Of a DNA stretch of 18,397 bases, positions 1 to 10,757 are shown in pieces. The stretch's first letter is position 1, and each line of letters opens with the position of its first letter. The stretch comes from a virus. Lineage: Duplodnaviria > Heunggongvirae > Uroviricota > Caudoviricetes. Made by a program: the position numbers and the translations under genes. The notes beneath the pieces are model-generated. The model did not search any database, was not told the DNA's origin, and saw only the letters and a list, made by a program, of their open reading frames with translations. The DNA lies in the IMG/VR virus record IMGVR_UViG_3300044797_000163, positions 1-18,397 of that record; one strand, given 5' to 3'.

Positions 1-85
1 TATTGGTTAGCCCGAACTTGTACCACTGCTCTGTACCAGTGAACTGGCCAAGGTCAGACAGTTTCAAATCCATTAGTTTTGGCAT
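1..85 (-). CDS. Partial hypothetical phage protein running off the window edge (MPKLMDLKLSDLGQFTGTEQWYKFGLTN...), resembling a DUF6876-type N-terminus
   Basis: ATG at 85 preceded by a strong SD (AAGGAGGT); open frame to the window edge. The L-x-Q-F-T-G-T-E-x-W-Y motif is recalled from DUF6876-like proteins and was not searched. Confidence 0.7.
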   Translation of the reverse strand, partial: MPKLMDLKLSDLGQFTGTEQWYKFGLTN

Positions 86-164
86 CTTGTTTGTACCTCC
101 TTCTCTTTGCCATAGAGATTGTCAGTTCGTTGTGAACCTCGAAGTCTGGTTCGTTCTCACTCAT
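54..164 (-). CDS. Small hypothetical protein, 36 aa (MSENEPDFEVHNELTISMAKRRRYKQDAKTNGFETV), possibly a truncated gene
   Basis: SD GCAGGAG just upstream of the ATG at 164; lies directly downstream of the promoter at 194-223; its 3' end overlaps the next gene's SD. Confidence 0.45.
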   Translation of the reverse strand: MSENEPDFEVHNELTISMAKRRRYKQDAKTNGFETV

Positions 165-193
165 AGCTCCTGCTTTCTGTCCGGCAACCGGAC

Positions 194-223
194 GTTATAC
201 CAATATGGATGCAGCACTGTCAA
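194..223 (-). promoter_or_regulatory. Sigma70-type promoter
   Basis: Minus strand reads TTGACA-18 nt-TATAAC with an extended -10 TG (TGgTATAAC). Confidence 0.7.
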
Positions 224-230
224 CTTGGAT

Positions 231-479
231 TCATTCGTCATTGTCAGCATGGTATAATGACTCTTCACCCGCCATGCTCTCACCAATGCCGCCCTCCTGC
301 AAACATTGCTTCAATAAATCAAAAGCAGAGTCATACTCAACCGTGACTTTGTGCAACGTGCCAAAGCTCGCATGAGGTTGACCCACCATTGCATTCTTCG
401 CCGCCTTGCGCGTGCGCTCACGAATCGAATAGGCGGGTGAGTCATCCAATCGCTCGGCAACCCAATAAGTTAGTTTCAT
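231..479 (-). CDS. Hypothetical phage protein, 82 aa (MKLTYWVAERLDDSPAYSIR...)
   Basis: ORF track; ATGA overlap with the stop of the upstream gene at 476-479, indicating translational coupling. Confidence 0.8.
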   Translation of the reverse strand: MKLTYWVAERLDDSPAYSIRERTRKAAKNAMVGQPHASFGTLHKVTVEYDSAFDLLKQCLQEGGIGESMAGEESLYHADNDE

Positions 480-844
480 AAATCACCGCGTGCTTTCTCT
501 GTCAATTTGGATTCTTTAAACTTGTACCCATCGGCATTAGGGTACAGTTTGTCGTACTCCTCGGTGGACAGCGCAACCTCACGAACACGCGATACTTTGG
601 TATAGATACCTCGAAACATATCGCGCAAACGTGCATCGCCTGAGAATTCAGGTTGGTTGGCATCAAGCGCACGGGTAATGAGTGCTTCGATCTCACCCGC
701 CACTAACAGCTCACTGCATATCTCGCAAGCGGCCATATAACCAGCATTCATTTGAATATGCAATGCTGGCACATCGATCTCCGGTTGTTTGAACATCCAG
801 ACCGGATTCGGTCGCGTGCAAAAATCACAAACCAAGCTCTTCAT
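476..844 (-). CDS. Putative zinc-binding hypothetical protein, 122 aa (CDFC...CEIC)
   Basis: Two CxxC pairs; SD AAGAGGTGA upstream; tightly packed with its neighbours. Confidence 0.8.
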   Translation of the reverse strand: MKSLVCDFCTRPNPVWMFKQPEIDVPALHIQMNAGYMAACEICSELLVAGEIEALITRALDANQPEFSGDARLRDMFRGIYTKVSRVREVALSTEEYDKLYPNADGYKFKESKLTEKARGDL

Positions 845-847
845 AGT

Positions 848-1120
848 TCACCTCTTAGGAATTTGCTGGCCTAACACGTATTCCACGCAATAGGCCATAT
901 ACATTGGATCATTTTCTTGACCCAAGGTTTCATTGATTCGTGCAATCACTGGCCGAATGATCTCTTCGGCAACAATGTCCGCATAGCTACGGTGTTGATT
1001 GCTCGGGTCGCCTGTCATCCTGTAACGCTTGTACAGGTTGACCGCCTTGGCAATCTCCGCTGGCAATAGAAAATCCGGCAACGTGATGTAACGGCGCTCA
1101 GTTGTGTTATCAGTGTTCAT
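848..1120 (-). CDS. Hypothetical phage protein, 90 aa
   Basis: SD AAGGGAG before the ATG at 1120; 3 nt gap to the next gene. Confidence 0.85.
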   Translation of the reverse strand: MNTDNTTERRYITLPDFLLPAEIAKAVNLYKRYRMTGDPSNQHRSYADIVAEEIIRPVIARINETLGQENDPMYMAYCVEYVLGQQIPKR

Positions 1121-1178
1121 TGTGATCTCCCTTCAGATCATCTCCGAATCGCCGTTCTGCAATTAGTTTCGGCGTCAC
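1110..1178 (-). CDS. Possible micro-ORF, 22 aa ([22 protein letters not shown]), or the remnant of a gene start
   Basis: GTG start preceded by a perfect SD AAGGAGGT; the initiation region resembles that of the gene starting at 85. Confidence 0.3.
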
Positions 1179-1339
1179 TGTGACCTCCTTCCGAGTTTGT
1201 TGTGAGTGTCTTTGACAAGTCCGGCCTCAACGTCCAAGCCATGCCATTATCTACCAGCTCTTGAAATAGGGCAATGGTTTGTGCCTCATCCAATTGCCCA
1301 TCTTCCCAAGCCATTAACTGCCCTACCATGTCGCATCAT
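1138..1339 (-). pseudogene. Small phage protein (..[34 protein letters not shown]..), apparently frameshifted at its start and with a foreign C-terminus
   Basis: SD AAAAGGGAG precedes ATGs at 1339 and 1336, both out of frame with ORF 1138-1329. The family motif W/Y-E-x-G-x-L-D...FQELVDxGxAWxL is recalled to continue QGxYGR, which is absent here (unverified). Confidence 0.45.
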
Positions 1340-1373
1340 TGATCTCCCTTTTGGTCGAATATGGCGAGCTGTT

Positions 1374-1553
1374 CTACCTTAATTGTCCTGCCAGTCGAGG
1401 ACCTGACCACATCGGACACAGATGTAATAGCAGTTTCCACGGTCCGCCTGATTTGCTAGTGTCGCCATATTTCCGCTCTGCCACGTTTTCTGCCGGATAG
1501 CAGTCTTTACAGAAGTCGAGTGGATCGTTGCTGGAATCGTAGATGCGCGGCAT
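1374..1553 (-). pseudogene. Cys-motif protein (MPRIYDSSNDPLDFCKDCYP...), probably frameshifted near 1441; the alternative frame continues RGNCYYICVRCGQVLDWQDN-stop (1441-1379)
   Basis: TAATG coupling to the upstream gene; one CxxC in the first frame and a second CxxC in the other frame ending at a TAA at 1379-1381. Confidence 0.5.
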
Positions 1554-1756
1554 TAGATTCTCTCCTCCATGGCTTGCACGGCTACCAGCATATTCTTGAC
1601 CATCTTATCCACGGCATAGAACAGCTCACCATAAGACAGGCCGGACTCCTTAAAATCTTCGCCGCTAGAATGCACGGTCAGGTTGTATTTGTTGACTATA
1701 TTGTTATCCGACGCTTCGACTTCGAATTGCAGTTTGTAGGGTTGGCGCGTGATCAT
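1553..1756 (-). CDS. Hypothetical protein, 67 aa (MITRQPYKLQFEVEASD...)
   Basis: Part of track ORF 1553-1783; SD CGGAGGT and an ATGA overlap favour the start at 1756. Confidence 0.75.
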   Translation of the reverse strand: MITRQPYKLQFEVEASDNNIVNKYNLTVHSSGEDFKESGLSYGELFYAVDKMVKNMLVAVQAMEERI

Positions 1757-1923
1757 TGGATAAGACCTCCGATGATGCTGCACACTTCAGCAGCGGCTAA
1801 CAGTGTGACGCCGATAACCGCGATTGCCCAAGCCGTGTAACGCATGGCCGTCTTGAGCGATTGCCAGATGCTAGGCATGACTGGCACAATTGACAGGGTA
1901 ATAAACTCCATCAATGCTTCCAT
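1753..1923 (-). CDS. Small membrane protein, 56 aa (MEALMEFITLSIVPVMPSIWQSLKTAMRYTAWAIAVIGVTLLAAAEVCSIIGGLIQ)
   Basis: Translated by hand; SD CAGGAG; hydrophobic C-terminal helix; stop overlaps the next ATG. Confidence 0.7.
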   Translation of the reverse strand: MEALMEFITLSIVPVMPSIWQSLKTAMRYTAWAIAVIGVTLLAAAEVCSIIGGLIQ

Positions 1924-1952
1924 CGTGATCTCCTGATGCTAGATGCATCCAC

Positions 1953-1977
1953 GGCTAGCTACTCATAATAGCTAGCC
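1953..1977. terminator. Perfect 9-bp hairpin in an intergenic gap (terminator, processing or operator element)
   Basis: GGCTAGCTA-CTCATAA-TAGCTAGCC; no U-tract on either strand. Confidence 0.45.
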
Positions 1978-1988
1978 TAAGTCACACC

Positions 1989-2204
1989 TTACATTTCCTG
2001 ATTAAACCCTCTATCCATGAACACATCACCCAATGCATCTAGGATGCGGTCCCGGAGAGAGATTGCTATCACTGCCGCACTACCGTGTTGGCCGTGCAAC
2101 CATAGGCCGACGCCAAAGAACATAGCGGCCACTAGTAGCCATTTGTGGTTGCTGTGAGCTAATGCGACTGCCTTGTTGCGAAGCTTTACAGCTTGGAGTG
2201 TCAT
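1989..2204 (-). CDS. Small membrane protein, 71 aa (MTLQAVKLRNKAVALAHSNHKWLLVAAMFFGVGLWLHG...)
   Basis: 3' part of track ORF 1989-2381; SD TGAGG upstream of the ATG at 2204; one TM-like segment. Confidence 0.7.
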   Translation of the reverse strand: MTLQAVKLRNKAVALAHSNHKWLLVAAMFFGVGLWLHGQHGSAAVIAISLRDRILDALGDVFMDRGFNQEM

Positions 2205-2218
2205 AAGCGTTAACCTCA
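2196..2218. repeat. 23-bp direct repeat, copy 1 (21/23 identical to 2853-2875), covering the SD, spacer and first three codons
   Basis: GAGTGTCATAAGCGTTAACCTCA versus GAGTGTCATTAGCGTTAGCCTCA. Confidence 0.85.
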
Positions 2219-2235
2219 GAGGTGAGTTTGCCTTG

Positions 2236-2421
2236 CTACACAGACTGATACTCATGGCCCGGAACTGATTCCAATCCCTTGAGTGCTTCCCGTTCGTAAT
2301 CGGGACAATCACAGTGGCCTTTGCCGTGACAATGCACGCATTGGATGCTGGGATTGTTCGAGGGTTGCAGTTTGCTAGCAACCCAATTAGTTTGCGCGTG
2401 ATACTGCTTGAATTTGTTCAT
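2236..2421 (-). CDS. Small Cys/His-rich protein, 61 aa (CVHCHGKGHCDC)
   Basis: SD CGGAGGA; CxxCxGxG zinc-knuckle-like motif of the DnaJ central-domain type. Confidence 0.75.
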   Translation of the reverse strand: MNKFKQYHAQTNWVASKLQPSNNPSIQCVHCHGKGHCDCPDYEREALKGLESVPGHEYQSV

Positions 2422-2447
2422 GTTATCCTCCGTTGATTACTTCCACG

Positions 2448-2669
2448 CTAGCGCTCAAATTCTGGAAGATCATTCGATTCGAGCACGACTTGGTGATTGT
2501 CCACTTTGGTATCCGTAACAGGGGCGATCACTAATTCCTCGTCATAGTTACGGAAACAACAGGCAATGTTGCCTTCTATCTTGCGTATCGCCTGTAAGTG
2601 GGCTATCATCTCATCGATGGTTAGCGGTTTGCCCATCCCGTAGTTGGCTTCCCAGCGGTTAGCTAACAT
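2448..2669 (-). CDS. Hypothetical protein, 73 aa (MLANRWEANYGMGKPLTIDEMIAHL...)
   Basis: SD CGGAGGT before the ATG at 2669, inside track ORF 2448-2705. Confidence 0.75.
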   Translation of the reverse strand: MLANRWEANYGMGKPLTIDEMIAHLQAIRKIEGNIACCFRNYDEELVIAPVTDTKVDNHQVVLESNDLPEFER

Positions 2670-2766
2670 GAGACCTCCGCTTGGCTTCCGTTGAATACAG
2701 GGCATAGCCGATAGCGACTATGATGCTATCGATCGAAGCCGCTAGGATTAGAGTTAGGACCATCAT
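2659..2766 (-). CDS. Tiny membrane peptide, 35 aa (MMVLTLILAASIDSIIVAIGYALYSTEAKRRSHVS)
   Basis: Translated by hand; ATGA coupling to the upstream ORF; hydrophobic core followed by a basic tail. Confidence 0.55.
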   Translation of the reverse strand: MMVLTLILAASIDSIIVAIGYALYSTEAKRRSHVS

Positions 2767-2861
2767 AGCGTCACTCCCAGCGAGCGGAGAATTGACGCCA
2801 GAATGATTAGCAGGGCTATGGCGTAGTAGCTGAACGATTCGGCTTTGAGATTGAGTGTCAT
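2763..2861 (-). CDS. Tiny membrane peptide, 32 aa (MTLNLKAESFSYYAIALLIILASILRSLGVTL); first gene of the leftward operon
   Basis: Translated by hand; SD TGAGG; about 30 nt downstream of the leftward promoter. Confidence 0.6.
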   Translation of the reverse strand: MTLNLKAESFSYYAIALLIILASILRSLGVTL

Positions 2862-2875
2862 TAGCGTTAGCCTCA
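2853..2875. repeat. 23-bp direct repeat, copy 2
   Basis: 21/23 identical to 2196-2218. Confidence 0.85.
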
Positions 2876-2897
2876 ATTGGATTGTTAAAGCATGGCC

Positions 2898-2925
2898 ATC
2901 ATAGCACATGGTTGACAGTAGTCAA
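2898..2925 (-). promoter_or_regulatory. Leftward sigma70 promoter for the small-gene operon
   Basis: TTGACT (2925-2920), 16 nt, TATGAT (2903-2898), with an extended -10 TG. Confidence 0.7.
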
Positions 2926-2940
2926 GCGCTATAGTATATT
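2912..2940 (+). promoter_or_regulatory. Rightward sigma70 promoter overlapping the leftward one
   Basis: TTGACA (2912-2917), 17 nt, TATATT (2935-2940). The two -35 boxes form the palindrome TTGAC-AGTA-GTCAA. Confidence 0.7.
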
Positions 2941-3269
2941 TTCTTTTCAATAACTTACGATTTCCACAATTGTGCGCTATCGCACGTATTACCTAGCAGA
3001 GGGAAAAAAGTTGAGGTTGCGGACCTCGAAGCAAAAAACCTCAAATCGCAAACTCTGAAAACCCTCCGGATGGTATCAATTCGGTATCACTGAGCTGATA
3101 TCACGTGTAGAATGTTAGTGTTAGGTAGTATGCTGTATTCTATTTAATCGTTTTTGTTGATGCCGATAGGGTCCCCTATTCTTGGGGATGCTAAGGGGAT
3201 GCCGCCAGGCCCCCTTGCGGCCCGCGAGCCGGTGCAAGTTGCCTGGTGATACCCCGGGAAAGTACGTCC

Positions 3270-3298
3270 TTGACAAACACGACGCTGGTTAGTATAAT
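3270..3298 (+). promoter_or_regulatory. Perfect-consensus sigma70 promoter, probably giving a leaderless transcript
   Basis: TTGACA-17 nt-TATAAT; the ATG at 3305 lies 7 nt after the -10 box. Confidence 0.9.
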
Positions 3299-3304
3299 GT
3301 CTGT

Positions 3305-3832
3305 ATGGTTAATGCAGGTATGGCTCTAGGATCTATCTCTTCCAATATCACGAAACCGGTTTACCGGTATTTCGTATTCGAATACGACCATTCCTATCCC
3401 ATAAATGAAGAAATCCTGAATCGATTTGGTTCCGGAGGGTGGGAAGCGGTATGTTCTCTCACAAATTTAGGTCGTCCGGCACTACTTTTCAAACGCTTCG
3501 AAGGCTGGCACCCGGCCATCCCCTTGCCGCCGTCTTCCCAGGAGCCCTTACCGGCGTCCTCTAACAGACCGGAGCAGATCAGCCAAGCTGAAGAACAGAC
3601 TGCCGAGCAAGCATTCGGTGAACTCAACCGCATCGTTGAAGAGATCGTCACTCCGAACACTACGGCAACCTGCAACATCTGCAATCAGCCGATGCCGGAA
3701 GGCGAAGAGATGTTCAACTATCACGGCTACAGCGGCCCCTGCCCGCCCCCGCCACCGAAGTTCAGTCATTATGACTGTGGTGAATTCATCCATACTGACG
3801 AGAATGGATACGTGATTGGACCGGTGATCTAA
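3305..3832 (+). CDS. Hypothetical protein, 175 aa, with a DUF4177-like N-terminal domain and C-terminal Cys/His motifs
   Basis: Y-x-Y...EEILNRFGSGGWEAV...LLFKR matches the DUF4177-type pattern as recalled; C-terminal CNIC...H..C and H-x-x-C. Confidence 0.75.
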   Translation: MVNAGMALGSISSNITKPVYRYFVFEYDHSYPINEEILNRFGSGGWEAVCSLTNLGRPALLFKRFEGWHPAIPLPPSSQEPLPASSNRPEQISQAEEQTAEQAFGELNRIVEEIVTPNTTATCNICNQPMPEGEEMFNYHGYSGPCPPPPPKFSHYDCGEFIHTDENGYVIGPVI

Positions 3833-4065
3833 TGACTGAAACAAAGGCACCAGTTCAGTTACACCCAGTTGGTAACTCGTTGCAGTGCGCCACCCAGGGA
3901 TTCACCACCGAGGACTGCTCGTCCGCTCTCGTTAGTGATGGTTTCTACTGGCGCTGTCCTTATAACCACATTCAAGGCTTTGATCAAGCAGGAAAGCCGA
4001 TCCGCAAGATTGCCGATCGGCGCCCCTCAGTGCGCAAGGGCCATCTGAATCGAGATGTCCTATGA
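3832..4065 (+). CDS. Hypothetical protein, 77 aa (Cys/His motifs)
   Basis: TAATG coupling to the upstream stop. Confidence 0.65.
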   Translation: MTETKAPVQLHPVGNSLQCATQGFTTEDCSSALVSDGFYWRCPYNHIQGFDQAGKPIRKIADRRPSVRKGHLNRDVL

Positions 4066-4132
4066 ATTGGCCCGAGGCTGCAGTTTGTATCGCTTGCTTT
4101 GTTTTAATGTCAGTCATCGCATGGAAGCTGCT

Positions 4133-5029
4133 GTGAGCCACGCTTACTACAACGAAAACGATAAGTTTGCCGCAGCTTGGCTGAAAGAATTGATTAAAGC
4201 CGGGCATATAGCAGCAGGAGATGTAGATGATCGATCAATTGAGGACGTAACTCCTAATGATCTTAGAACATACACACAGTGTCACTTCTTCGCAGGCATC
4301 GGTGGTTGGAGTTATGCCCTCCGACTTGCAGGATGGCCGGACGATAAACGGGTCTGGACCGGATCATGTCCTTGCCAGCCTTTCAGCGCGGCAGGCCAAA
4401 GAAAAGGGATTGCTGACGAGCGGCACTTATGGCCGTCCTGGTTTCATCTTATCGAGCAGTGCGGCGCTTCAGTCGTTTTTGGGGAACAAGTTACGGCAAG
4501 CCTTAAACACGGCTGGCTCGACCTTGTTCAAGATGACTTGGAAGGAGCAGGTTACACCGTCGCAGCGCACGGTATCGCTGCCTGTAATCTCGGCGCTCCG
4601 CATCAACCGAAACGATTGTACTTCGTGGCGGACACCCGATCACACACCTCGTGGAGCACGGTTAGATCAGACCAAGGGACATCAAATCAACTTGCAGGAT
4701 CAAGCGATCCTGAGTGGTTGGTCAAGCCCACGAGCGAGCAAATGGGGATTTCCCGACTCTCATGGGAGCCACGAAGCTCCGACAGCCGGTTGGCCTGCGG
4801 ACGGAAGCATCAGAGAGAGAGTGGATCAGCTACCACGTCAAGCGGCACTTTCTGGTCAACCGTTGATTGGATCTATTGCCGGGACGAAAAGTATAGGCCA
4901 GTTGAACCCGGCACATTCCCGCTGGCTCATGGGGTTTCCAACAGAATGGGAAAGTTGCGCGGATATGGTAACGCTATCGTCCCACAAGTCGCCCAAGCGT
5001 TCATCGAAAGCTACTTAGGGACTTTATGA
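4133..5029 (+). CDS. C5-cytosine DNA methyltransferase, alpha-type polypeptide (about 298 aa from the GTG at 4133; ORF open from 4055)
   Basis: Motif I FFAGIGG (4286), motif IV GSCPCQPFS (catalytic Cys 4373-4375), motif VI GEQV, motif VIII GAPHQPKR, motif X LRGYGNAIVP (4955). No motif IX in this frame. Confidence 0.93.
   Translation: MSHAYYNENDKFAAAWLKELIKAGHIAAGDVDDRSIEDVTPNDLRTYTQCHFFAGIGGWSYALRLAGWPDDKRVWTGSCPCQPFSAAGQRKGIADERHLWPSWFHLIEQCGASVVFGEQVTASLKHGWLDLVQDDLEGAGYTVAAHGIAACNLGAPHQPKRLYFVADTRSHTSWSTVRSDQGTSNQLAGSSDPEWLVKPTSEQMGISRLSWEPRSSDSRLACGRKHQRESGSATTSSGTFWSTVDWIYCRDEKYRPVEPGTFPLAHGVSNRMGKLRGYGNAIVPQVAQAFIESYLGTL
4257..5018 (+). CDS. Nested +1-frame ORF, putative methyltransferase beta polypeptide supplying motif IX and a TRD-like region (start at 4257 or 4314)
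   Basis: 253 codons without a stop, entirely inside the alpha gene; ends with LNPAHSRWLMGFPTEW (4902 onward), a motif IX-like segment; precedent in M.EcoHK31I alpha/beta. Confidence 0.75.
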   Translation: MILEHTHSVTSSQASVVGVMPSDLQDGRTINGSGPDHVLASLSARQAKEKGLLTSGTYGRPGFILSSSAALQSFLGNKLRQALNTAGSTLFKMTWKEQVTPSQRTVSLPVISALRINRNDCTSWRTPDHTPRGARLDQTKGHQINLQDQAILSGWSSPRASKWGFPDSHGSHEAPTAGWPADGSIRERVDQLPRQAALSGQPLIGSIAGTKSIGQLNPAHSRWLMGFPTEWESCADMVTLSSHKSPKRSSKAT

Positions 5030-5223
5030 ACATCCCTCAGATCGCCGTACAGACCGCCAAGGACTTCGCCGGTAAGTGGCAATACAAAGGAGTGCTCTTC
5101 GTTAACCTCGATGACGCGCACCTAGCGTTTGCTACTGACCTTACCAACATGGTGCTCCAGCAAGTATTTCAACAGATGGCGGCTCAACAAGCAGCGCCAA
5201 GGATTGTGAGCACCGAATGCTAG
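5026..5223 (+). CDS. Hypothetical protein, 65 aa
   Basis: ATGA coupling to the MTase stop. Confidence 0.75.
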   Translation: MNIPQIAVQTAKDFAGKWQYKGVLFVNLDDAHLAFATDLTNMVLQQVFQQMAAQQAAPRIVSTEC

Positions 5224-5387
5224 ATGATCTCAAAGTAGACCGTATCGCTACGTGGTTGACTGTGGCGCACCAGGCGACGGAGCTTCGAGCGATGCTTGAT
5301 GATCGCTTGAAGAATGGAGCGGAGTCATTAACCATTTCTAGCATTGTCTCTTATTGCCTGAACAAAGCGCTGGAGGCTGCGATATGA
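5217..5387 (+). CDS. Hypothetical helical protein, 56 aa (MLDDLKVDRIATWLTVAHQATELRAMLDDRLKNGAESLTISSIVSYCLNKALEAAI)
   Basis: Translated by hand (below the track cut-off); overlaps both neighbours and exactly fills the gap. Confidence 0.7.
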   Translation: MLDDLKVDRIATWLTVAHQATELRAMLDDRLKNGAESLTISSIVSYCLNKALEAAI

Positions 5388-5617
5388 ACCAGACACCAAC
5401 CTCACATCTCGTGGGTGCCACCAAACGATTTCGCAAACGCAACCACGGCAGCAGCACTGCAGGATCGAATCGCGGGCGTTCCGCAAGGTTCGTCACTTAC
5501 TGTCCGGAATGTCCGAACTCAAACATGGCGAATCCGGAACAGGCCGAACATCTTACAGTATCCGCCTACACAAAGACAGCGACCTGTAGAGCAGGGCATA
5601 GGTGGAAGATTCAATGA
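5384..5617 (+). CDS. Putative zinc-ribbon protein, 77 aa (CPEC...CRAGH)
   Basis: SD GGAGG and ATGA overlap at 5384; CxxC plus CxxxH. Confidence 0.75.
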   Translation: MNQTPTSHLVGATKRFRKRNHGSSTAGSNRGRSARFVTYCPECPNSNMANPEQAEHLTVSAYTKTATCRAGHRWKIQ

Positions 5618-5838
5618 CAACGACTTTTGGGCTCCCGCCAGGAGTTACGACTCACCTGCCGGATGACAGGGATGAAGCAATCGCGGCTCTAATCAATGTT
5701 TTGGATCTCTGTATGATCCCGATCGACATCCTGGTCGGCTCAGGGCAGTGCGATCCTCGGGCCGATTATCTGCCAGCGGATCTCAAACGGGCAATTCTCG
5801 ACGCGCATGAAGCTATCACCCAGGTGATGGCCGAGTAA
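5614..5838 (+). CDS. Hypothetical protein, 74 aa
   Basis: ATGA overlap at 5614; SD GGAAG. Confidence 0.7.
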   Translation: MTTTFGLPPGVTTHLPDDRDEAIAALINVLDLCMIPIDILVGSGQCDPRADYLPADLKRAILDAHEAITQVMAE

Positions 5839-5847
5839 ACCCTCACC

Positions 5848-6342
5848 ATGCGCCACTGGAAATGGAAGCAGGACAAAGTTCTTTCAGTGCTCCAGGACAT
5901 CGATGCCACCGAGCATAAGATTCTGGATCAGCTTCAACCACGGCTCTCGTTTATCAAGATCAAGTTTTCAGCGGTATGCAGGCATTATGGCTGTAACTGC
6001 TGTGGAGGAATTATGGCAGAAGGACCGGTAACACTTACACTAGGACAGACCACGGTAGCGAGCATCGACGGCTACGATCAGAATGGCGCGGCATGGACGG
6101 GGCCGATCCCGACTCCGACTTGGAGCATCGACCAGCCGTCGCTCGATACCATCACTCCGGACGCGACTACACCGGCCAACGAGGATGTCCTCTCGGTTGC
6201 CGTTGGTGTTGCGAACCTCACTGTGACCGTAACTAACGCCCAGGGAACTGTGCTCACTGATACCGAGGCTGTCACTAACGTTGCGCAGGCTCTGGTTCTA
6301 TCGAGCATCAAGATCAGCTTTGCCACCCCGACCGGTGTCTAA
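5848..6342 (+). CDS. Ig-like beta-sandwich protein (possible virion decoration), 164 aa, with a strong internal start at 6013 (109 aa)
   Basis: Thr/Val-rich beta pattern (TLTLGQTTVASIDGYDQNG...TWS...LTVTVT) resembling bacterial Ig-like domains; SD GGAGGA before the ATG at 6013. Confidence 0.7.
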   Translation: MRHWKWKQDKVLSVLQDIDATEHKILDQLQPRLSFIKIKFSAVCRHYGCNCCGGIMAEGPVTLTLGQTTVASIDGYDQNGAAWTGPIPTPTWSIDQPSLDTITPDATTPANEDVLSVAVGVANLTVTVTNAQGTVLTDTEAVTNVAQALVLSSIKISFATPTGV

Positions 6343-6402
6343 CTATGATCCAGCCTTCGGCTGGTGGCGCAGTTGGATTAGTATTTCACGACGTTTAACG
6401 GA

Positions 6403-6464
6403 AGCCCCACTGCTACCGAAAAAACCCGAAGAACTCGCAAGTTAAAGTAGGATGCGGTGGGGTT
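6403..6464 (+). ncRNA. Candidate structured RNA element directly upstream of the tRNA-Met-like gene
   Basis: AGCCCCACTG (6403-6412) pairs with CGGTGGGGTT (6455-6464); CTAC pairs with GTAG; inner hairpin AACT-CGCA-AGTT; A-rich junctions. No family recognised. Confidence 0.35.
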
Positions 6465-6471
6465 AAGATTT

Positions 6472-6544
6472 GGCGGGGAAGTGAAATGGCATCACGAGAC
6501 CCTCATAAGGTCTAGATCCGGTTCGAATCCGGCGACCGCCCCCA
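6472..6544 (+). tRNA. tRNA-Met(CAT)-like gene, non-canonical or possibly a pseudo-tRNA
   Basis: D arm GTGA/TCAC, anticodon arm AGACC-CTCATAA-GGTCT, T arm CCGG-TTCGAAT-CCGG, encoded CCA. The acceptor stem has only 5 pairs (G6:A67 and G7:G66 mismatches) and position 8 is A. Confidence 0.7.
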
Positions 6545-6642
6545 ACATGAGCACCTACGCTGCCCGTAGGGAGGGAGTGGAAGTCTCCCATTTATACCCT
6601 ATGTAAGAAAGGTTGCCTGCAAAGCAACCTATTGAGCACACA

Positions 6643-6855
6643 ATGTTAGTCCTCATCCTATTCGCGGCAATGCTCCAACCTACCCCCGATTGGACGTGCC
6701 GCGCCTTGGATGAGGCGCACATGGTCTGTGAGGCGCCGGACACCTTCGATGTAACCGACGAGGAGATCCGAGCGTGGCGCCTGGAGTATCTGGATAATCA
6801 CAACAACGACGACTTCTGTGTAGAGTGTGAACCACTAAGACTGATCAAATTATGA
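6643..6855 (+). CDS. Small exported or membrane-anchored protein, about 70 aa, with four Cys
   Basis: Hydrophobic N-terminus MLVLILFAAML; ATGA coupling to the next gene; alternative upstream start at 6613. Confidence 0.6.
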   Translation: MLVLILFAAMLQPTPDWTCRALDEAHMVCEAPDTFDVTDEEIRAWRLEYLDNHNNDDFCVECEPLRLIKL

Positions 6856-7178
6856 AAATCATAGCAACCGTAGTCCTGTTTCTATCGTTGGCTACCGCAT
6901 CCTTCAGCCAGACCCTGCAAGATGTCGCACGCCTCAATCAATGTGAACTTCAAGCTATCGCCAACGCGCAGCTCGCGGTTGACCAGGCGAACTGGAATCT
7001 GGAGCGAGTGAAGGCCACGATCGCCAGCAATCACGGTCACAGCGGCGTCTTGTACAACCCCTCCTATAAGTTCGAGGGTGATTTCATCCTGTTTTACTCT
7101 AATACGGTAATTTGGTCCGGCTCTACTATCGTCACGCCAGTTGACCGCAACAGTACCCTCATAGCGGTGCCGCAATGA
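6852..7178 (+). CDS. Putative secreted protein, 108 aa, with a signal peptide and a coiled-coil segment
   Basis: MKIIATVVLFLSLATASFS|Q signal-peptide pattern; heptad-like ELQAIANAQLAVDQANWNLERVKA. Confidence 0.8.
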   Translation: MKIIATVVLFLSLATASFSQTLQDVARLNQCELQAIANAQLAVDQANWNLERVKATIASNHGHSGVLYNPSYKFEGDFILFYSNTVIWSGSTIVTPVDRNSTLIAVPQ

Positions 7179-7450
7179 ACGCAACCGACGTAATTGACGC
7201 CTGGCGCTGCGACTACTGCAACATCTACGTCTATAACCTCGAAGTGAAGGGTGGGGTTCTCGGCCCGACACACGGCGCCCCGACCCCCAAGTACCTCTCG
7301 AAGCTGTATCCCAAGGTCTGCACCCTGTGCTTTGACATGCACAACGTGATTGAAGACAACGACTACTTCATGCGTGAGCAGACGAAGTGGGAAGATGCAG
7401 GCCACACACAGCAGCCGATGAATGCAATTGACAGAGGACGTATCTTGTAG
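7175..7450 (+). CDS. Putative zinc-finger protein, 91 aa (CDYC...CTLC..H)
   Basis: Two CxxC pairs; ATGA coupling. Confidence 0.8.
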   Translation: MNATDVIDAWRCDYCNIYVYNLEVKGGVLGPTHGAPTPKYLSKLYPKVCTLCFDMHNVIEDNDYFMREQTKWEDAGHTQQPMNAIDRGRIL

Positions 7451-7456
7451 TATAAT
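7428..7456 (+). promoter_or_regulatory. Perfect-consensus sigma70 promoter, probably giving a leaderless transcript
   Basis: TTGACA-17 nt-TATAAT; the ATG at 7463 lies 7 nt after the -10 box. Confidence 0.9.
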
Positions 7457-7462
7457 GCCAGC

Positions 7463-7687
7463 ATGTATTATTACATCATGCCGGTTGTTACGTTAGTATG
7501 TGTCCTCACTCTCCTCCTTATGCTCGAAGAGTTCACCAAGCGCTGGGTACGGCGCAGGCAGTACAAAAAGTTCTACTGGGAGCTACTCGATATCCAGGAC
7601 GTGCTCAACGCTGCGCTCGACAGCTCTGAGGCGGATAGGAAGCTCAAGATCAAATATTCCGTGAATGAACTGCGGAAACTAGTCTGA
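7463..7687 (+). CDS. Small single-pass membrane protein, 74 aa
   Basis: N-terminal TM helix followed by a basic stretch (KRWVRRRQYKK); no SD, and the ATG sits at the predicted +1. Confidence 0.8.
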   Translation: MYYYIMPVVTLVCVLTLLLMLEEFTKRWVRRRQYKKFYWELLDIQDVLNAALDSSEADRKLKIKYSVNELRKLV

Positions 7688-7693
7688 GGTCCT

Positions 7694-8173
7694 ATGCGCT
7701 ATTGCCTTCTTTTCTTGATGTTCTTGTTTTTGATCTTTCCGGTTAAAGCTAAGTCACAGGTTCCAACCTCGGCCCGAGGGTGGGTCACCTTCGTGATGCC
7801 GAGTCCGGAAGGCCCCGGCATCGGTTATAATTTTGGCCTCTTCGGTGGGGATGGATCGACTGAAACCAACGTCTTCAGTTACAGCAAGGGCGCCTTCAGT
7901 CTTTCGACGCACTTCCCGCTGGTTGATCCTCATCTTCTGGTTCTCTTCACCGGAACCACTGGCGAGCCCACGATTGTTGCCGCAGATACTTTGGGCTGCT
8001 ATTACGTCTACTTTGACGTTACCAATGGCCTGCTTACCGTCGAAGAGTTGAATGGAACCATTCTCAAACAGTTTGTGCCGAGTGACAGCACTTACTGGCA
8101 AGAATTCTGCTCCCTCGATGGAGGCGGAAACAACTTCTGGAGTGCGGGCGGTCTCAACGTCCTGCATCCTTAA
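7694..8173 (+). CDS. Putative secreted beta-rich protein, 159 aa
   Basis: Signal peptide MRYCLLFLMFLFLIFPVKA; SD GAGG. Confidence 0.8.
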   Translation: MRYCLLFLMFLFLIFPVKAKSQVPTSARGWVTFVMPSPEGPGIGYNFGLFGGDGSTETNVFSYSKGAFSLSTHFPLVDPHLLVLFTGTTGEPTIVAADTLGCYYVYFDVTNGLLTVEELNGTILKQFVPSDSTYWQEFCSLDGGGNNFWSAGGLNVLHP

Positions 8174-8196
8174 AGTCTGGCGTGGTCGCCCCCGCA

Positions 8197-8249
8197 GTGA
8201 AGGGTAGGAGCGCAGAGCCAGGCCCGTGCAGCCCACGGGCCTCCTTCAC
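8197..8249 (+). other. Nested stem-loop structure upstream of the hydrolase catalytic domain
   Basis: AGGCCCGTG-CAGCC-CACGGGCCT (8220-8242), enclosed by GTGAAGG/CCTTCAC (8197-8203 and 8243-8249). Confidence 0.55.
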
Positions 8250-8337
8250 CACACATATCCTCTTATGGATGCTGCTGCTCGTTCTACTTGCACCCCAACC
8301 ACGATTCACTCCTCTCCCTCCCGTAGAAAGACCCCCA

Positions 8338-8766
8338 ATGACCGTAGCAGATTTAGAAAAAGGGCTCGCGTGTATTCTGGCCTGGCGCGAAGAACGTTCC
8401 AACAAGATCAATGGCATGCTCGCCGTTCTGTTCGTGGTGCGTAACCGCTCCAAGGCAGGATGGAGCCAGGGTAGTTGGACACAAATCATCGAGTCCCACA
8501 ACCAGTTCAGCAGCATCTCGGTGGTGGGGAACAGCCAGACCGTCCTATATCCTGATCCCCGCGATCCCGACTTCATCTCAGTGATGCAGTTAGTCGATTC
8601 CGTGTACGACGGCACCCGCGCCGACAACCTCACGGATGGCGCCCTCTACTACGCCGACATCGGCAGGGGCATCACTCTAGGCGGATGGTTCGAGAAGAAC
8701 ATCATCAATGACCCCACCAATCACCCCCGCACCGCCCAAGTCGGCACCACAACCTTCTTCAAATAG
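8338..8766 (+). CDS. SleB/CwlJ-like cell wall hydrolase (Hydrolase_2 family), candidate endolysin or virion lysin; ORF open upstream to 8182
   Basis: LAWREERS (catalytic Glu position), GMLAVLFVVRNR, NQFSS, TDGALYY and terminal TTFFK match the SleB-family pattern. The start is uncertain (8182, 8269 or 8338). Confidence 0.85.
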   Translation: MTVADLEKGLACILAWREERSNKINGMLAVLFVVRNRSKAGWSQGSWTQIIESHNQFSSISVVGNSQTVLYPDPRDPDFISVMQLVDSVYDGTRADNLTDGALYYADIGRGITLGGWFEKNIINDPTNHPRTAQVGTTTFFK

Positions 8767-8836
8767 TGATTTATAGGTCACTTATTACCGATTAACAGCA
8801 TAAATGTGACATATAAAGTCGCATTGTGCCGGTTAT

Positions 8837-8911
8837 TGGCATGTAGCTCAACGGCAGAGCTGTTGACTGTTACTCAACCGGTTGGAGGTTCGAATCCTCC
8901 CGTGCCAGCCA
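8837..8911 (+). tRNA. tRNA-Asn(GTT)
   Basis: Acceptor TGGCATG/CGTGCCA, G73, CCA; D arm GCTC/GAGC; anticodon arm GTTGA-CTGTTAC-TCAAC; T arm GGAGG-TTCGAAT-CCTCC. Confidence 0.95.
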
Positions 8912-9034
8912 CCTTGTTATGAAAACACCAATCACCATCTTTCGAACACATAGCAATCGAAAACTTACAAGGGTATGAAACTCACTGTCAGTGAATGACC
9001 CCGAGCAACTAACTCCGTATCAAAGGAAAACATA

Positions 9035-9637
9035 ATGGCAAATGCAAATACGTTCGCTGGCTTTCAGAACCTGACAGCCGTAACCTGGACCAATGGCTCC
9101 ACCGAAACTGGGTACGTAATCCCTGCGGCTGGTGTCTATCCGTCCCTCCCTTCTCCCACTCAGGTGGCCGGTAACTGGCTGTGCATCCCTGCTCTCGCTG
9201 GCGATGTCACAGGTGGTGTGCTTGACTACGCACGCCCGTTCCGTGTGCGCGTGAACATGGAGATCAACTCGGCGCAGTCCGAGAACATTACGATCGCGAT
9301 CTACCAGGCGACCGCTGCCAAGTTCGCCGCTGGCATCACCGCTACTGGCAATGGCACAAAGATCGCCACCACTGGCGCGTTGGCGACTGGCGCTGCACTC
9401 AAAGGCAAGGTGTTCCTCGATGCCGTTTGCATCTGGGATAGCCAGTCAAAGTCTTTGAACGGCTATTACTCTGGTTACAACGCTCTCGGCACCCCCGCCG
9501 TGATCGCTGCTACCACCTTCAGTGCTGCGGTTGCGTCCCTGAACGAGAGCGATTTGAACTTCTTCTTCACGGTCCTGACGGCCACCGGCACGTCTGATGT
9601 CATCGGCCCGATCGATTTCACCATCGACCGTTACTAA
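9035..9637 (+). CDS. Putative virion structural protein, 200 aa (Ala/Thr/Gly-rich, beta-sandwich-like)
   Basis: SD AAAGGA; strongly biased codon usage; MANANT start and composition typical of structural proteins. Function is inferred only. Confidence 0.7.
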   Translation: MANANTFAGFQNLTAVTWTNGSTETGYVIPAAGVYPSLPSPTQVAGNWLCIPALAGDVTGGVLDYARPFRVRVNMEINSAQSENITIAIYQATAAKFAAGITATGNGTKIATTGALATGAALKGKVFLDAVCIWDSQSKSLNGYYSGYNALGTPAVIAATTFSAAVASLNESDLNFFFTVLTATGTSDVIGPIDFTIDRY

Positions 9638-9679
9638 ACAAGATGTCCTGGGCATGACTAGAAACTGCCCAAATTCTAA

Positions 9680-9755
9680 GCCAGCGTAGCTCAAGCGGAA
9701 GAGCAACCGCACTGTAAGCGGAAGCGTGGGGTTTCGACTATCTCCGCTGGCTCCA
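9680..9755 (+). tRNA. tRNA-Thr(TGT), non-canonical
   Basis: Perfect acceptor GCCAGCG/CGCTGGC (Thr identity pairs G1-C72 and C2-G71), T73, CCA; anticodon loop ACTGTAA (A32, C33); T53-A61 instead of G53-C61. Confidence 0.8.
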
Positions 9756-9757
9756 AT

Positions 9758-9832
9758 GGGCCTGTAGTGCTAGTGCGAACACGCCCCGCTTGCACCGGGG
9801 AATCAGAGGTTGAACTCCTCTCAGGTCCACCA
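9758..9832 (+). tRNA. tRNA-Ala(TGC)
   Basis: Acceptor GGGCCTG/CAGGTCC with the G3:U70 Ala determinant, A73, CCA; anticodon arm CCCCG-CTTGCAC-CGGGG; atypical T loop TTGAACT and a D loop lacking GG. Confidence 0.9.
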
Positions 9833-9836
9833 AATT

Positions 9837-10091
9837 ATGGCAGCTAAAGACGTACTCGCGGGTCAAGCAAGAGGGCAGGGAACCAAGGTCGCGGAGTATT
9901 CCGAGGCTGGGCCTTTCCATTGTAAAGACTGCACGTATCTGAAGACGCCAGGCCCCGATGCGGCCCACGGCCTCTGCAACCAGAAAGTCATGCTGAAAGA
10001 TCCTCAGGTCAAGACGGATGCGAAAAGTAAGTTAAAAATCGTCAACATCGAGCATGGCTGCTGCCGGTTCGTGAAGGTAAAAAATGGCTAA
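9837..10091 (+). CDS. Small Cys-rich metal-binding protein, 84 aa (CKDC-x13-C-x25-GCC)
   Basis: ATG 5 nt after the tRNA-Ala CCA; the track start at 9810 lies inside the tRNA. Confidence 0.75.
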   Translation: MAAKDVLAGQARGQGTKVAEYSEAGPFHCKDCTYLKTPGPDAAHGLCNQKVMLKDPQVKTDAKSKLKIVNIEHGCCRFVKVKNG

Positions 10092-10449
10092 CGTATTCAG
10101 CTCCAACCCTGTGTATATCGACACTGATACGACAGTGGGAGGCAACACCAACTGGAAGGGATCGAGCGGAGGGTCCAAGTACACCGGGGGTATCGGCATC
10201 CGTCCGATTCAAATCATCCTCACGCCCCTCGGCGCGACCACGGCCACTGAGATCGTTATCAATGAGGTCAAGTCTGTTGGTGGTGCCACAGGTGCTGTGC
10301 TCTTCGCCGTTCAATTTCCTACTGCTACCGCTACTGCCGCCGTCTCACTGCAGTTCAACCTGGAACAGACAGCTTCAGGATGGCATGACTTCATCGTTAC
10401 CGGCGTAACAGCGGCGGGCATCGCGATGACGATTTACTACAGGGTTTAA
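10084..10449 (+). CDS. Putative small virion structural protein, 121 aa (beta-rich)
   Basis: Overlaps the upstream stop; alternating beta-strand pattern; Gly/Thr-rich. Confidence 0.7.
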   Translation: MANVFSSNPVYIDTDTTVGGNTNWKGSSGGSKYTGGIGIRPIQIILTPLGATTATEIVINEVKSVGGATGAVLFAVQFPTATATAAVSLQFNLEQTASGWHDFIVTGVTAAGIAMTIYYRV

Positions 10450-10457
10450 GGAGATCT

Positions 10458-10757
10458 ATGGCAGACCGTACTCGTAGTGCAATGGGTGGTTCAAAACCCA
10501 AAAAGAAATCCAGCAAGTCTCGCTCGAAGAAGAAATCGAGCAAACGTTTCAAGTCCATGAACATTCGGCGCATGAGCGGGGCGGATAATCCCCAGTTCTC
10601 GATCTCGCACGAACAGCATCCCGGCGAAGACGGCACCACCGCAGCTCCAGAAGAGCACGGCGCGGCTGACGAACAGGATTTGATGAGCCATGTTCAACAG
10701 CATGCTCCGAACCTCGGCCCGCCCGAGCCCCAGGAACCGATGCCGCAGATGGCGTAA
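10458..10757 (+). CDS. Hypothetical protein, 99 aa, with a Lys/Ser-rich N-terminus and an acidic His-rich C-terminus (possible nucleic-acid-binding or core protein)
   Basis: SD AAGGAG; KPKKKSSKSRSKKKSSKRFK. Confidence 0.8.
   Translation: MADRTRSAMGGSKPKKKSSKSRSKKKSSKRFKSMNIRRMSGADNPQFSISHEQHPGEDGTTAAPEEHGAADEQDLMSHVQQHAPNLGPPEPQEPMPQMA

Follow-up and report, generated by a model that had tools for sequence, protein, structure and literature searches.

A phage DNA methyltransferase gene with two overlapping reading frames: a predicted two-chain C5-cytosine enzyme of the M.EcoHK31I type

Introduction

To our knowledge, the nesting of one chain of a C5-cytosine methyltransferase within the gene for the other has been demonstrated experimentally for M.EcoHK31I of E. 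coli only. In the published descriptions of this enzyme (E. coli HK31, YGGCCR; work of Lee, Kam and Shaw, 1995), the beta gene lies inside the alpha gene in a different frame, motif IX is found on the beta chain, and the target-recognition domain (TRD) is assigned, by prediction, to the alpha chain (PMC2836561, PMC3404938). The first 42 residues of the beta chain are described as dispensable in vitro (PMC2836561). M.AquI is described as two chains that are split within the variable region, with motifs IX and X both on the small chain (PMC3404938).

Here we analyse a locus in 18,397 nucleotides of phage DNA (the window; positions 1 to 18,397 of IMG/VR record IMGVR_UViG_3300044797_000163). The locus very probably specifies a two-chain C5-cytosine DNA methyltransferase of the M.EcoHK31I type from a single stretch of DNA. 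The gene is predicted to be read in two overlapping frames, of which alpha would supply the catalytic core and beta the DNA-recognition part. As in M.EcoHK31I, beta lies wholly within the alpha gene, on the same strand and in another frame (here 4257-5018 inside 4133-5029). In both systems, motifs I-VIII and X belong to alpha and motif IX to beta, and beta would be made by internal initiation inside the mRNA of alpha. The dispensable start of M.EcoHK31I beta, of about 42 residues, matches the neutral beta residues 7-43 of the present locus.

The two systems also differ. In M.EcoHK31I the TRD is placed on alpha, whereas here the stretch of alpha from motif VIII to motif X evolves neutrally and is modelled as disordered, and TRD-like modules are found on beta. 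This difference may be real, or it may be a product of the 1995 assignment by position. M.EcoHK31I is part of a restriction-modification system; at the present locus, no nuclease can be recognised. None of ten neighbouring ORFs matched Pfam, although restriction enzymes often escape recognition by sequence, and of ten ORFs scanned against PHROGs the only one with a match was a distant ORF (8182-8766), to endolysin families. The likeness to M.EcoHK31I is one of layout and description rather than of proven sequence homology. A Swiss-Prot fold search with alpha returned ordinary type II C5 methyltransferases and M.AquIA, and M.EcoHK31I is not among the matches listed. M.AquI shares with the enzyme predicted here the need for two polypeptides, but the account of it cited above, as far as it was available, does not describe an overlap of the chains in another frame.

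Results

The alpha coding sequence (4133-5029, plus strand) comprises 298 codons from a GTG at 4133 and specifies the chain that bears the catalytic large domain, including motifs I-VIII and X. According to the ORF listing, the frame is open from 4055 to 5029; homologue alignments begin at about 4133, which supports the GTG as the start. In-frame ATG codons at 4121 and 4055 are alternative starts. Alpha matches phrog_363 over its full length (E 1e-82); in the long form, residues 101-198 match PF00145 (E 3e-16). It scores 42.8 bits with TIGR00675, under the cut-off of 100.65 bits. The best Foldseek matches of the AF2 model are M.HaeIII, DNMT2 and M.HhaI.

The motifs, all on the plus strand, can be read directly from the sequence. 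Motif I (FAGIGG, AdoMet binding; 4286-4306) contains the invariant columns F53, G55 and G57, motif IV (GSCPCQPFS, with the catalytic Cys; 4361-4387) the invariant columns G77-C81, F84 and S85, and motif VI (FGEQV, the ENV equivalent; 4478-4492) the invariant columns G117, E118, Q119 and V120. In motif VIII (GAPHQPKRLYF; 4592-4624), Pro159 takes the place of an Arg that is found in 45/45 homologues. Motif X (GYGNAIVPQVAQ, with GNAIVPQVA; 4961-4996) has the invariant columns G279, N280 and A287 and an alpha-changing substitution rate of 0.007; the AF2 model of this region has a mean pLDDT of 86-92 over alpha residues 281-298, with a helix at 284-297. Motifs I, IV, VI, VIII and X and the large-domain fold expected of a C5-cytosine DNA methyltransferase are hence united in one chain, and the TRD and motif IX expected between motifs VIII and X are not part of that chain. 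Motif IX is absent from the alpha frame, as the initial annotation of this DNA had noted.

The beta coding sequence (4257-5018, plus strand) is fully nested in alpha, in the +1 frame relative to it, and would encode a small-domain chain of 253 codons. The same annotation had pointed to a stop-free frame that ends in a motif IX-like segment, and both its coordinates and its codon count are confirmed. Beta matches phrog_1008 (E 9e-20) and phrog_31772 (E 4e-14). It has no match among Pfam and NCBIfam models, and its profile found no related sequence in the PDB. When modelled alone by AF2, beta reaches a mean pLDDT of only 57, and the Swiss-Prot fold search with this low-confidence model gave chance matches only. 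By tblastn, beta is found with about 40% identity over its full length in 241 phage records, where its loci coincide with those of alpha.

At about 55 related IMG/VR loci, the +1 frame has a single open stretch that covers about 85-90% of alpha, and the +2 frame has 8-35 stops. A nested open +1 frame is likewise present in K1ind2, Cr-LKS3, PhiXhv-5, Paenibacillus phage Likha and an E. coli prophage. Frequent +1-frame stops in homologous alpha genes, which would have refuted the initial annotation, are not seen: the beta frame is open in all complete homologues, with 234-436 codons. The length of the frame rises with that of alpha, and even insertions as long as about 180 codons leave it open. 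When the codons of alpha are shuffled synonymously, a +1 ORF as long as the real one arises in 0.05% of shuffles for the window, and in 0-3% for 12 homologues. The openness of the first 41 or so codons of beta is uninformative, because the alpha sequence there already precludes +1 stops. The amino-acid motifs of beta are kept at about 40% identity among phages of Proteobacteria, Cyanobacteria and Firmicutes, and the two-frame layout is kept in every related phage gene examined. Beta is not a chance ORF.

Selection on the two frames was compared by substitution-class rates, expressed relative to expectation, in 135 pairs of related sequences that are not phylogenetically independent. The rate of alpha-silent, beta-changing substitutions is 0.33-0.39 before the overlap and over beta residues 1-49 (0.33 in the non-overlapped alpha residues 1-41), 0.16 over beta residues 50-124, and 0.012 over beta residues 125-199. 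Over the last of these segments, alpha-changing, beta-silent substitutions occur at a rate of 0.30, near the doubly silent rate of 0.38. In terms of nucleotides, changes that are silent in alpha and alter beta are suppressed about 30-fold over 4637-4816 (rate 0.000-0.026), and alpha-changing, beta-silent changes are neutral there (0.33-0.47). Both frames are constrained at once over 4385-4636 and 4817-4960, in agreement with the earlier proposal of constraint at both ends of the overlap; true double constraint within the overlap is limited to about 400 nt.

Amino-acid constraint is absent, by the same rates, from beta residues 7-43. The conserved N-terminal block that follows (beta residues 44-124; 4386-4628, plus strand) overprints alpha motifs IV-VIII, and both frames are constrained, with rates of 0.04-0.32 for alpha-silent, beta-changing and 0.00-0.12 for alpha-changing substitutions. 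Within this block, AF2 predicts a helix and a hairpin for residues 67-115 (pLDDT 72-86). At third codon positions of alpha, identity is 0.37-0.47 ahead of the overlap and climbs to 0.86 where motif IX is encoded. A comparison of synonymous sites across homologues had been called for in the initial annotation. Beta is under purifying selection.

The roles of the two frames are swapped over 4637-4816 (plus strand), where W-x-T/S-P modules of beta, which are TRD-like, are strongly selected, and the linker of alpha (residues 169-228) is neutral and stop-free. The length variation of the family falls entirely in this region. The earlier description of the alpha interval between motifs VIII and X as shadow-like proved apt: its amino-acid identity is 0.19-0.34, alpha-changing substitutions occur at the neutral rate, and the AF2 pLDDT is 31-40 over residues 173-241. 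The interval is probably an unconstrained, disordered tether of about 60 residues. The neutral linker is without stops in all 45 genes. Given a conserved beta protein, the median probability of an open linker is 0.045, and for linkers 228-236 codons long it falls to 0.000. As the linker is stop-free against expectation, it is likely that alpha is read through to motif X.

Motif IX of beta (GQLNPAHSRWLMGFPTEW, residues 214-231; 4896-4949, plus strand) has the invariant columns L216, P218, W223 and L224. By hhalign (86.5%, E 4.6e-6), it corresponds to the segment that directly precedes motif X in single-chain relatives, whose TRD position is the one taken by the W-x-T/S-P modules of beta. These relatives are Mycobacterium phage Wachhund gp69 and similar actinophage enzymes, in which L-P-T-P modules, motif IX and motif X follow motif VIII in one frame. 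The actinophage enzymes thus have homologous catalytic motifs, L/W-P-T-P modules and motifs IX and X in common with the present locus, but their modules and motif IX share the frame of motifs I-VIII and X. Their motif IX is not confirmed by Pfam, because Pfam reports the N-terminal half only, and a PDB search with the C-terminal profile of the single-chain relatives gave chance matches only. Signs of constraint in the actinophage genes are limited to a shorter +1 stretch that ends in the first P-T-P module. The point of return to the alpha frame appears to shift between clades, from after motif IX here to after the first P-T-P module in actinophages. With respect to the original claim that beta supplies the missing motif IX, the motif is indeed on beta, but it is not all that beta supplies, since the conserved N-terminal block and the W-x-T/S-P modules are also located there.

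The translation start of beta (4241-4259, plus strand) consists of a GAGGA at 4241-4245, a +1-frame stop TAA at 4248-4250 and the ATG at 4257-4259, just upstream of alpha motif I. The Shine-Dalgarno (SD)-like motif and the ATG are 11 nt apart, a spacing that is long but still usual. Among homologues, 45/46 have their first +1-frame ATG at alpha residues 28-42 (residue 71 in the exception), usually close behind the last +1 stop, and 31/46 have an SD-like motif. Within 4241-4276, the alpha-silent substitution rate falls to 0.06. A candidate sigma-70-type promoter (3270-3298, plus strand; a consensus match only, 12/12) heads the same-strand gene string that includes alpha and beta, and no promoter-like site was found ahead of beta.

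Modelling of alpha together with beta, another of the checks suggested at the outset, gave an ipSAE of 0.90 (best control 0.07) from custom alignments, in which nucleotides common to both chains could inflate apparent co-variation. The ipSAE mark is attained by 58/80 solved complexes and by 2/110 mismatched pairs. Contact agreement between runs is at least 68%, and partner pLDDT is at least 58. None of the best contacts listed is at the offset of 41-42 residues that corresponds to shared codons. In the model, beta residues 213-240 contact alpha residues 274-297, 11-25 and 56-61, so that motif IX of beta packs on motif X and the N-terminal helix of alpha, and the conserved beta block 44-124 touches alpha residues 100-167.

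A search with the beta profile matched 27,346 clusters at 50% identity. Nested pairs of CDS, both labelled 'DNA methyltransferase', are on record for K1ind2 (gp32/gp33), Xanthomonas phage PhiXhv-5 and Paenibacillus phage Likha (gp51/gp52). These pairs (phrog_363 with phrog_1008) have the frames and motifs described here, with full-length homology in both frames, but the records offer no interpretation; no source was found for the name 'Mte8-like' that K1ind2 gp33 bears. The view of this overprinted type as rare is contradicted by the number of clusters and by the annotated pairs. Judged by sequence, the nested two-chain layout is widespread. Annotation usually misses the second frame: the Cr-LKS3 record has the beta frame alone, and RefSeq plasmid and E. 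coli records have alpha alone or cut into two 'partial' pseudogenes. A literature search for a family-wide account of this dual coding found none, which is no proof of absence.

Discussion

The initial annotation had proposed a dual-coded gene like that of M.EcoHK31I, and ORF conservation, substitution-class rates, the conserved internal start and the complex model all speak for it. In the proposed mechanism, alpha would be the catalytic large domain, in which a tether of about 60 residues joins motifs I-VIII to a short conserved segment and then to motif X. Beta would be translated from the mRNA of alpha, in the +1 frame, by ribosomes that initiate internally, at an SD-like motif and an ATG of its own. 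The first 43 or so residues of beta would be a neutral leader; the conserved block (residues 44-124) would dock on alpha, the W-x-T/S-P modules (residues from about 124 to 200) would replace the TRD, and residues 214-231 would be motif IX. Alpha and beta would then assemble into the usual two-domain enzyme. We infer that beta is translated, that the chains bind each other, that the enzyme is active, and that it protects phage DNA from restriction, as the initial annotation had proposed; it may also be the orphan that was supposed there.

With respect to activity, it is conceivable, if rather unlikely, that the two-chain architecture is intact and the copy in the window is catalytically weakened or inactive, a possibility that is compatible with the main reading. 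In motif VIII, Pro159 stands where an arginine is otherwise invariant, so this copy may be impaired. Near Pro159, moreover, both frames are off consensus (alpha residues 151-152, beta residues 109-111). However, neither ORF is interrupted, the 10 deviations from consensus in alpha and the 8 in beta are within the family range, and Lys160 and Arg161, right after Pro159, might compensate.

A programmed frameshift had been considered as an alternative to two chains. In its explicit form, a single polypeptide would be made by two programmed shifts, in which ribosomes follow alpha to motif VIII, move +1 into beta for the TRD and motif IX, and return by -1 for motif X. Such a double shift would restore the canonical order of motifs, which single-chain relatives have in one frame, and selection does pass to beta near 4637 and return to alpha near 4961. 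It is nevertheless disfavoured, because the neutral alpha linker stays stop-free, which is nothing that a shifted ribosome needs, and because beta begins at a conserved ATG of its own, frequently with an SD-like motif, long before the supposed shift. Selection on beta is also seen at residues 44-124, a segment that shares its DNA with alpha motifs IV-VIII and lies ahead of the first supposed shift. A GGGAAAG read from the sequence near 4941-4947 has a phase that suits the wrong frame, and M.EcoHK31I functions as two separately expressed chains. We therefore reject the double frameshift as very improbable.

An equally slim chance attaches to a beta that is translated and conserved but has an independent role, for example as a DNA-binding or regulatory protein, instead of being a methyltransferase subunit. 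The failure of beta to match Pfam, NCBIfam or PDB sequences would fit such a role, as would its uncertain fold when modelled alone. However, the beta modules and motif IX are homologous to the interval between motifs VIII and X of single-chain C5 methyltransferases, the parts missing from alpha are exactly those on beta, and motif IX adjoins motifs X and I in the complex model. In addition, beta is nested within an alpha gene at every locus inspected, and in the 150 best beta-profile matches listed it is a stand-alone ORF that starts at or near residue 1.

That the +1 frame is an untranslated shadow, open through composition or nucleotide-level constraints, can be dismissed as extremely improbable: the frame would be open under synonymous shuffling anyway over alpha residues 44-84 (median P = 1.0), and beta residues 7-43 are free of amino-acid constraint, but, barring an alignment artefact, this explanation is contradicted by the substitution-class rates, with their strong suppression of beta-altering silent changes over 4637-4816 while alpha drifts, by the conservation of beta motifs across phages of three bacterial groups, and by an open frame that spans long insertions.

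Within the preferred reading of a two-chain enzyme, we lean, by a modest degree, towards beta as a separable specificity subunit. It would carry the whole target-recognition part in the form of a variable number of W-x-T/S-P modules, and the alpha tether would be neutral, with its sequence and length dictated by beta. If this is true, textbooks are wrong to place the TRD of M.EcoHK31I-type enzymes on alpha, and the family, with over 27,000 clusters at 50% identity, would rank among the largest and longest overlaps of genes on one strand that are known from dsDNA phages.

The findings have consequences for annotation, in which an intact alpha is recorded alone or as pseudogenes, and in which beta is without a Pfam or NCBIfam model despite its tens of thousands of clusters. 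For the evolution of overlapping genes, nature provides in this family a data set of very large size: the two frames share the load, with one evolving neutrally where the other is under constraint. Finally, if beta holds the recognition modules, the published domain assignment of M.EcoHK31I needs to be revisited, and the specificity of such enzymes could be studied, or re-engineered, through one small chain.

The two reading frames

The ORF on the + strand is open from 4055 to 5029. Since homologues align only from about 4133 (GTG) on, alpha, the C5-cytosine methyltransferase chain, was taken as 4133-5029 (298 codons), other possible starts being in-frame ATGs at 4121 and 4055. Alpha contains motifs I (FAGIGG), IV (PCQPF), VI (GEQV), VIII (GAPHQPKRLYF) and X (GNAIVPQVA). 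Its match to PF00145 is confined to the IV-VIII part, and phrog_363 matches its whole length (E 1e-82). Beta (4257-5018, +, 253 codons) lies in the +1 frame; upstream of its ATG at 4257 there is a TAA stop two codons before and a GAGGA 11 nt before. Both the alpha motifs and the nested frame, as described in the initial annotation, can be read directly from the sequence. Beta has no match in Pfam or NCBIfam, and its PHROG matches, phrog_1008 (E 9e-20) and phrog_31772 (E 4e-14), are both labelled DNA methyltransferase.

The alignment of beta sequences divides into four parts. A variable leader is followed by a conserved block with the consensus LSARQA..GLLTSGT.G, then GSTL.KLTWKE..TPSGR and ..LRAS..RTS. 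The third part consists of W-x-T-P modules, the variable number of which is the source of all length variation in the family. The fourth, GQLNPAHSRWLMGLPPEW, is highly conserved and leads into a basic tail.

Conservation of the nested frame

A tblastn search of phage genomes with beta identified 241 records, with about 40% identity over nearly the full length, at the same loci that alpha matches with about 50% identity. Frequent +1-frame stops, which would speak against the proposed dual coding, were not found in homologous alpha genes: among 55 related loci fetched from IMG/VR, every complete one has a single open +1 stretch of 234-436 codons. It begins 60-135 nt inside alpha, ends just before the alpha stop (in two cases just after), and lengthens along with alpha, which reaches up to 487 codons. 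The +2 frame of the same loci is interrupted by 8-35 stops and is nowhere open for more than 43-108 codons. Shuffling the synonymous codons of alpha gave a +1 frame as long as the observed one in 0-3% of cases for individual genes and in 0.05% of cases for the window.

To assess selection on both frames, 46 alpha genes were aligned by codon. In 135 pairs at 2-30% nucleotide divergence, each single-base difference was classed by what it does to alpha and to beta, and the count in each class was normalised to the number of changes that could fall in it. The pairs lack phylogenetic independence; the gene ends outside the overlap provide an internal control, and the effects amount to about 30-fold. 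Before the overlap and over alpha 42-90 (beta 1-49), alpha-silent/beta-changing differences occur at 0.33-0.39 and alpha-changing/beta-silent ones at 0.011-0.015, indicating constraint on alpha only. At 4241-4276, which includes the SD-like motif and ATG of beta, the two rates are 0.06 and 0.004, a local nucleotide constraint. Both frames are constrained at 4385-4636 (beta 44-127; 0.04-0.32 and 0.00-0.12) and again at 4817-4960 (0.03-0.12 and 0.03-0.07), only beta in between (4637-4816; 0.000-0.026 and 0.33-0.47), and mainly alpha from 4961, where motif X begins (0.25-0.56 and 0.002-0.007). Doubly silent changes have a rate of 0.38-0.43 in the first segments; beta is therefore unconstrained there, and alpha over 4637-4816. 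The third-codon-position identity of alpha (0.37-0.47 before the overlap, 0.60-0.67 over 4403-4627, 0.86 at 4898-4942) tells the same story.

When phage K1ind2 is compared with E. coli genomes, only the stretch coding for beta motif IX and the pre-X part of alpha (alpha nt 728-890; L001:2249-2411 in the fetched locus) shows about 76% nucleotide identity, as expected for a doubly constrained part; the remainder of these prophage methyltransferase genes has diverged.

Beta and the small domain of single-chain relatives

In Mycobacterium phage Wachhund gp69 and some 25 relatives, a single chain carries motifs I-VIII, four L-P-T-P modules, FPEWMMGWPAGW, about ten residues and motif X (GNGVVPQQ) in this order and in one frame. 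With the beta profile, matches fall on their modules and pre-X segment, in the same frame as their motifs, and hhalign places beta 214-237 on the pre-X segment (86.5%, E 4.6e-6). After motif VIII and before motif X, C5 methyltransferases carry the target-recognition part (TRD) and motif IX. Hence beta carries the parts of the small domain (described in PMC3404938) that alpha is without, and the idea that the nested frame supplies the missing motif IX is borne out.

In actinophage relatives (loci L061-L093; also Wachhund gp69, L060:1309-2730), the +1 frame overlaps motifs VI-VIII and the next ~60 codons and terminates in a bona fide L-P-T-P module. Changes silent in frame 0 are suppressed in this stretch (0.04-0.07), and at residues 161-220 the constraint on frame 0 itself is relaxed (0.08-0.18). 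Frame 0 encodes the later modules as well as motifs IX and X. The place where coding goes back to the main frame seems to vary from clade to clade. The length of the +1 ORF alone is not significant in these GC-rich relatives (P 0.02-0.6).

Structure models

AlphaFold2, run on alpha alone with the alpha alignment, gave a mostly confident model for residues 1-172, with two short low-confidence dips, and a confident C-terminal motif X helix (~281-298); over residues 173-241 pLDDT is 31-40. The best PDB matches are M.HaeIII, DNMT2 and M.HhaI. In the model of beta alone, residues 1-40 are disordered, a helix and hairpin (67-115, pLDDT 72-86) and two short helices (218-234) are formed, and the remainder is uncertain.

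The complex of alpha and beta, modelled with author-made alignments and for two chains that have nucleotides in common, reached an ipSAE of 0.90, compared with 0.07 for the best control; of 80 solved complexes 58 attain this mark, as do 2 of 110 mismatched pairs. Three runs share at least 68% of contacts, with partner pLDDT of at least 58, and among the best contacts listed there is none at the 41-42 residue offset that shared codons would give. Beta 213-240 packs on the motif X region (274-297), the N-terminal helix (11-25) and motif I (56-61) of alpha, and beta 39-128 lies against alpha 100-167. The complex model lends support to a predicted binding of alpha and beta to each other.

Two chains or a frameshift

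The initial annotation left the choice between two chains and a programmed frameshift; the data favour the former. Alpha 169-228 drifts freely, yet is stop-free in all 45 distinct genes. With the beta protein kept and synonymous codons shuffled, the median probability that alpha remains open is 0.045, and it is 0.000 for linkers of 228-236 codons. The linker is thus open against expectation, which means that alpha is read on as far as motif X. Constraint on beta sets in at residue 44, atop alpha motifs IV-VIII and far upstream of any possible shift point. For a single polypeptide built by two programmed frameshifts, there would be no need of an open alpha linker or of constraint on the N-terminal block of beta, and this alternative is very improbable.

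For beta as a separate chain, the first ATG lies between alpha residues 28 and 42 in all but one of 46 genes, mostly with the last +1 stop shortly before it; an SD-like motif precedes it in 31 of the 46. No promoter-like site was found ahead of beta, the nearest consensus promoter being at 3270-3298, so that internal initiation on an mRNA shared with alpha would be the simplest reading. That site is a perfect match to TTGACA-17-TATAAT, with an ATG (3305) 7 nt past the -10 hexamer. It heads a same-strand string of genes that abut or overlap by few bases (3305-3832, 3832-4065, alpha/beta, 5026-5223 and onward).

The window copy and its surroundings

The IMG/VR virus record that contains the window is 82,397 nt long, with an estimated completeness of 78%. 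Its nearest relatives share 53-57% identity in alpha. Departures from columns with at least 85% consensus (10 positions in alpha, 8 in beta) are inside the range of the family. One of them is conspicuous: alpha Pro159 (4607-4609) replaces the first motif VIII arginine present in 45/45 other sequences (H-I-R-Q-R to H-Q-P-K-R), and may weaken this copy. Just upstream, in a small patch at 4581-4589, alpha 151-152 and beta 109-111 are off consensus too.

None of the neighbouring ORFs matches Pfam and no methyltransferase neighbour matches a PHROG family, which makes an orphan methyltransferase plausible; it may have an anti-restriction role. Among ten ORFs scanned, the sole PHROG match is a weak one of ORF 8182-8766 to endolysin families (E 1.7e-5), and the remainder of the 18-kb window has no recognisable families.

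Relation to M.EcoHK31I and to existing annotation

In the alpha/beta C5 methyltransferase M.EcoHK31I, the beta gene lies wholly inside the alpha gene in another frame; motifs I-VIII, X and the predicted TRD are in alpha, and motif IX is in beta (PMC2836561, PMC3404938). In vitro its beta can do without the first 42 residues, and Met codons inside the chain are usable as starts (PMC2836561, PMC3404938). The comparison, made with published descriptions instead of the M.EcoHK31I sequence, shows the same nested layout and motif split, as originally proposed, and the dispensable leader parallels the neutral beta residues 7-43 of the window. The sole difference is the TRD: the evidence points to beta as its carrier in the window enzyme, in contrast to the prediction for M.EcoHK31I; this difference may simply reflect a positional assignment made in 1995.

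Both nested CDS are annotated already in K1ind2, PhiXhv-5 and Paenibacillus phage Likha. RefSeq-style records annotate alpha only. In Cylindrospermopsis phage Cr-LKS3 (L002, OM373202.1 38260-38997) the single annotated frame is that of beta ('methyltransferase'), and the unannotated alpha frame is 56% identical to window alpha. In a lambdoid prophage of E. coli Ec1117 (NZ_CP126602.1, L095:2330-3532), an intact alpha of 400 codons encloses an intact beta of 334 codons, and the RefSeq pipeline records this gene as two 'incomplete, partial' DNA cytosine methyltransferase pseudogenes; the locus adjoins a frameshifted MT-A70 methyltransferase and bet/exo/gam genes. The beta profile matched 27,346 clusters at 50% identity, of which 8,704 have E <= 1e-30; in the best 150 of the 27,346, which are stand-alone ORFs, the match begins with residue 1 or close to it. 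Searching by words gave 5,079 called proteins; the 120 listed have no Pfam domains, and those with a source name are 'hypothetical protein'. No paper giving a family-wide account of alpha/beta dual coding was found in the literature searched.

The initial observation is thus confirmed and its core interpretation supported: the locus belongs to a known, experimentally precedented but under-annotated kind. Of greatest interest are the apparent shift of the frame boundary between clades and the possible specificity role of beta, which may be the specificity subunit.
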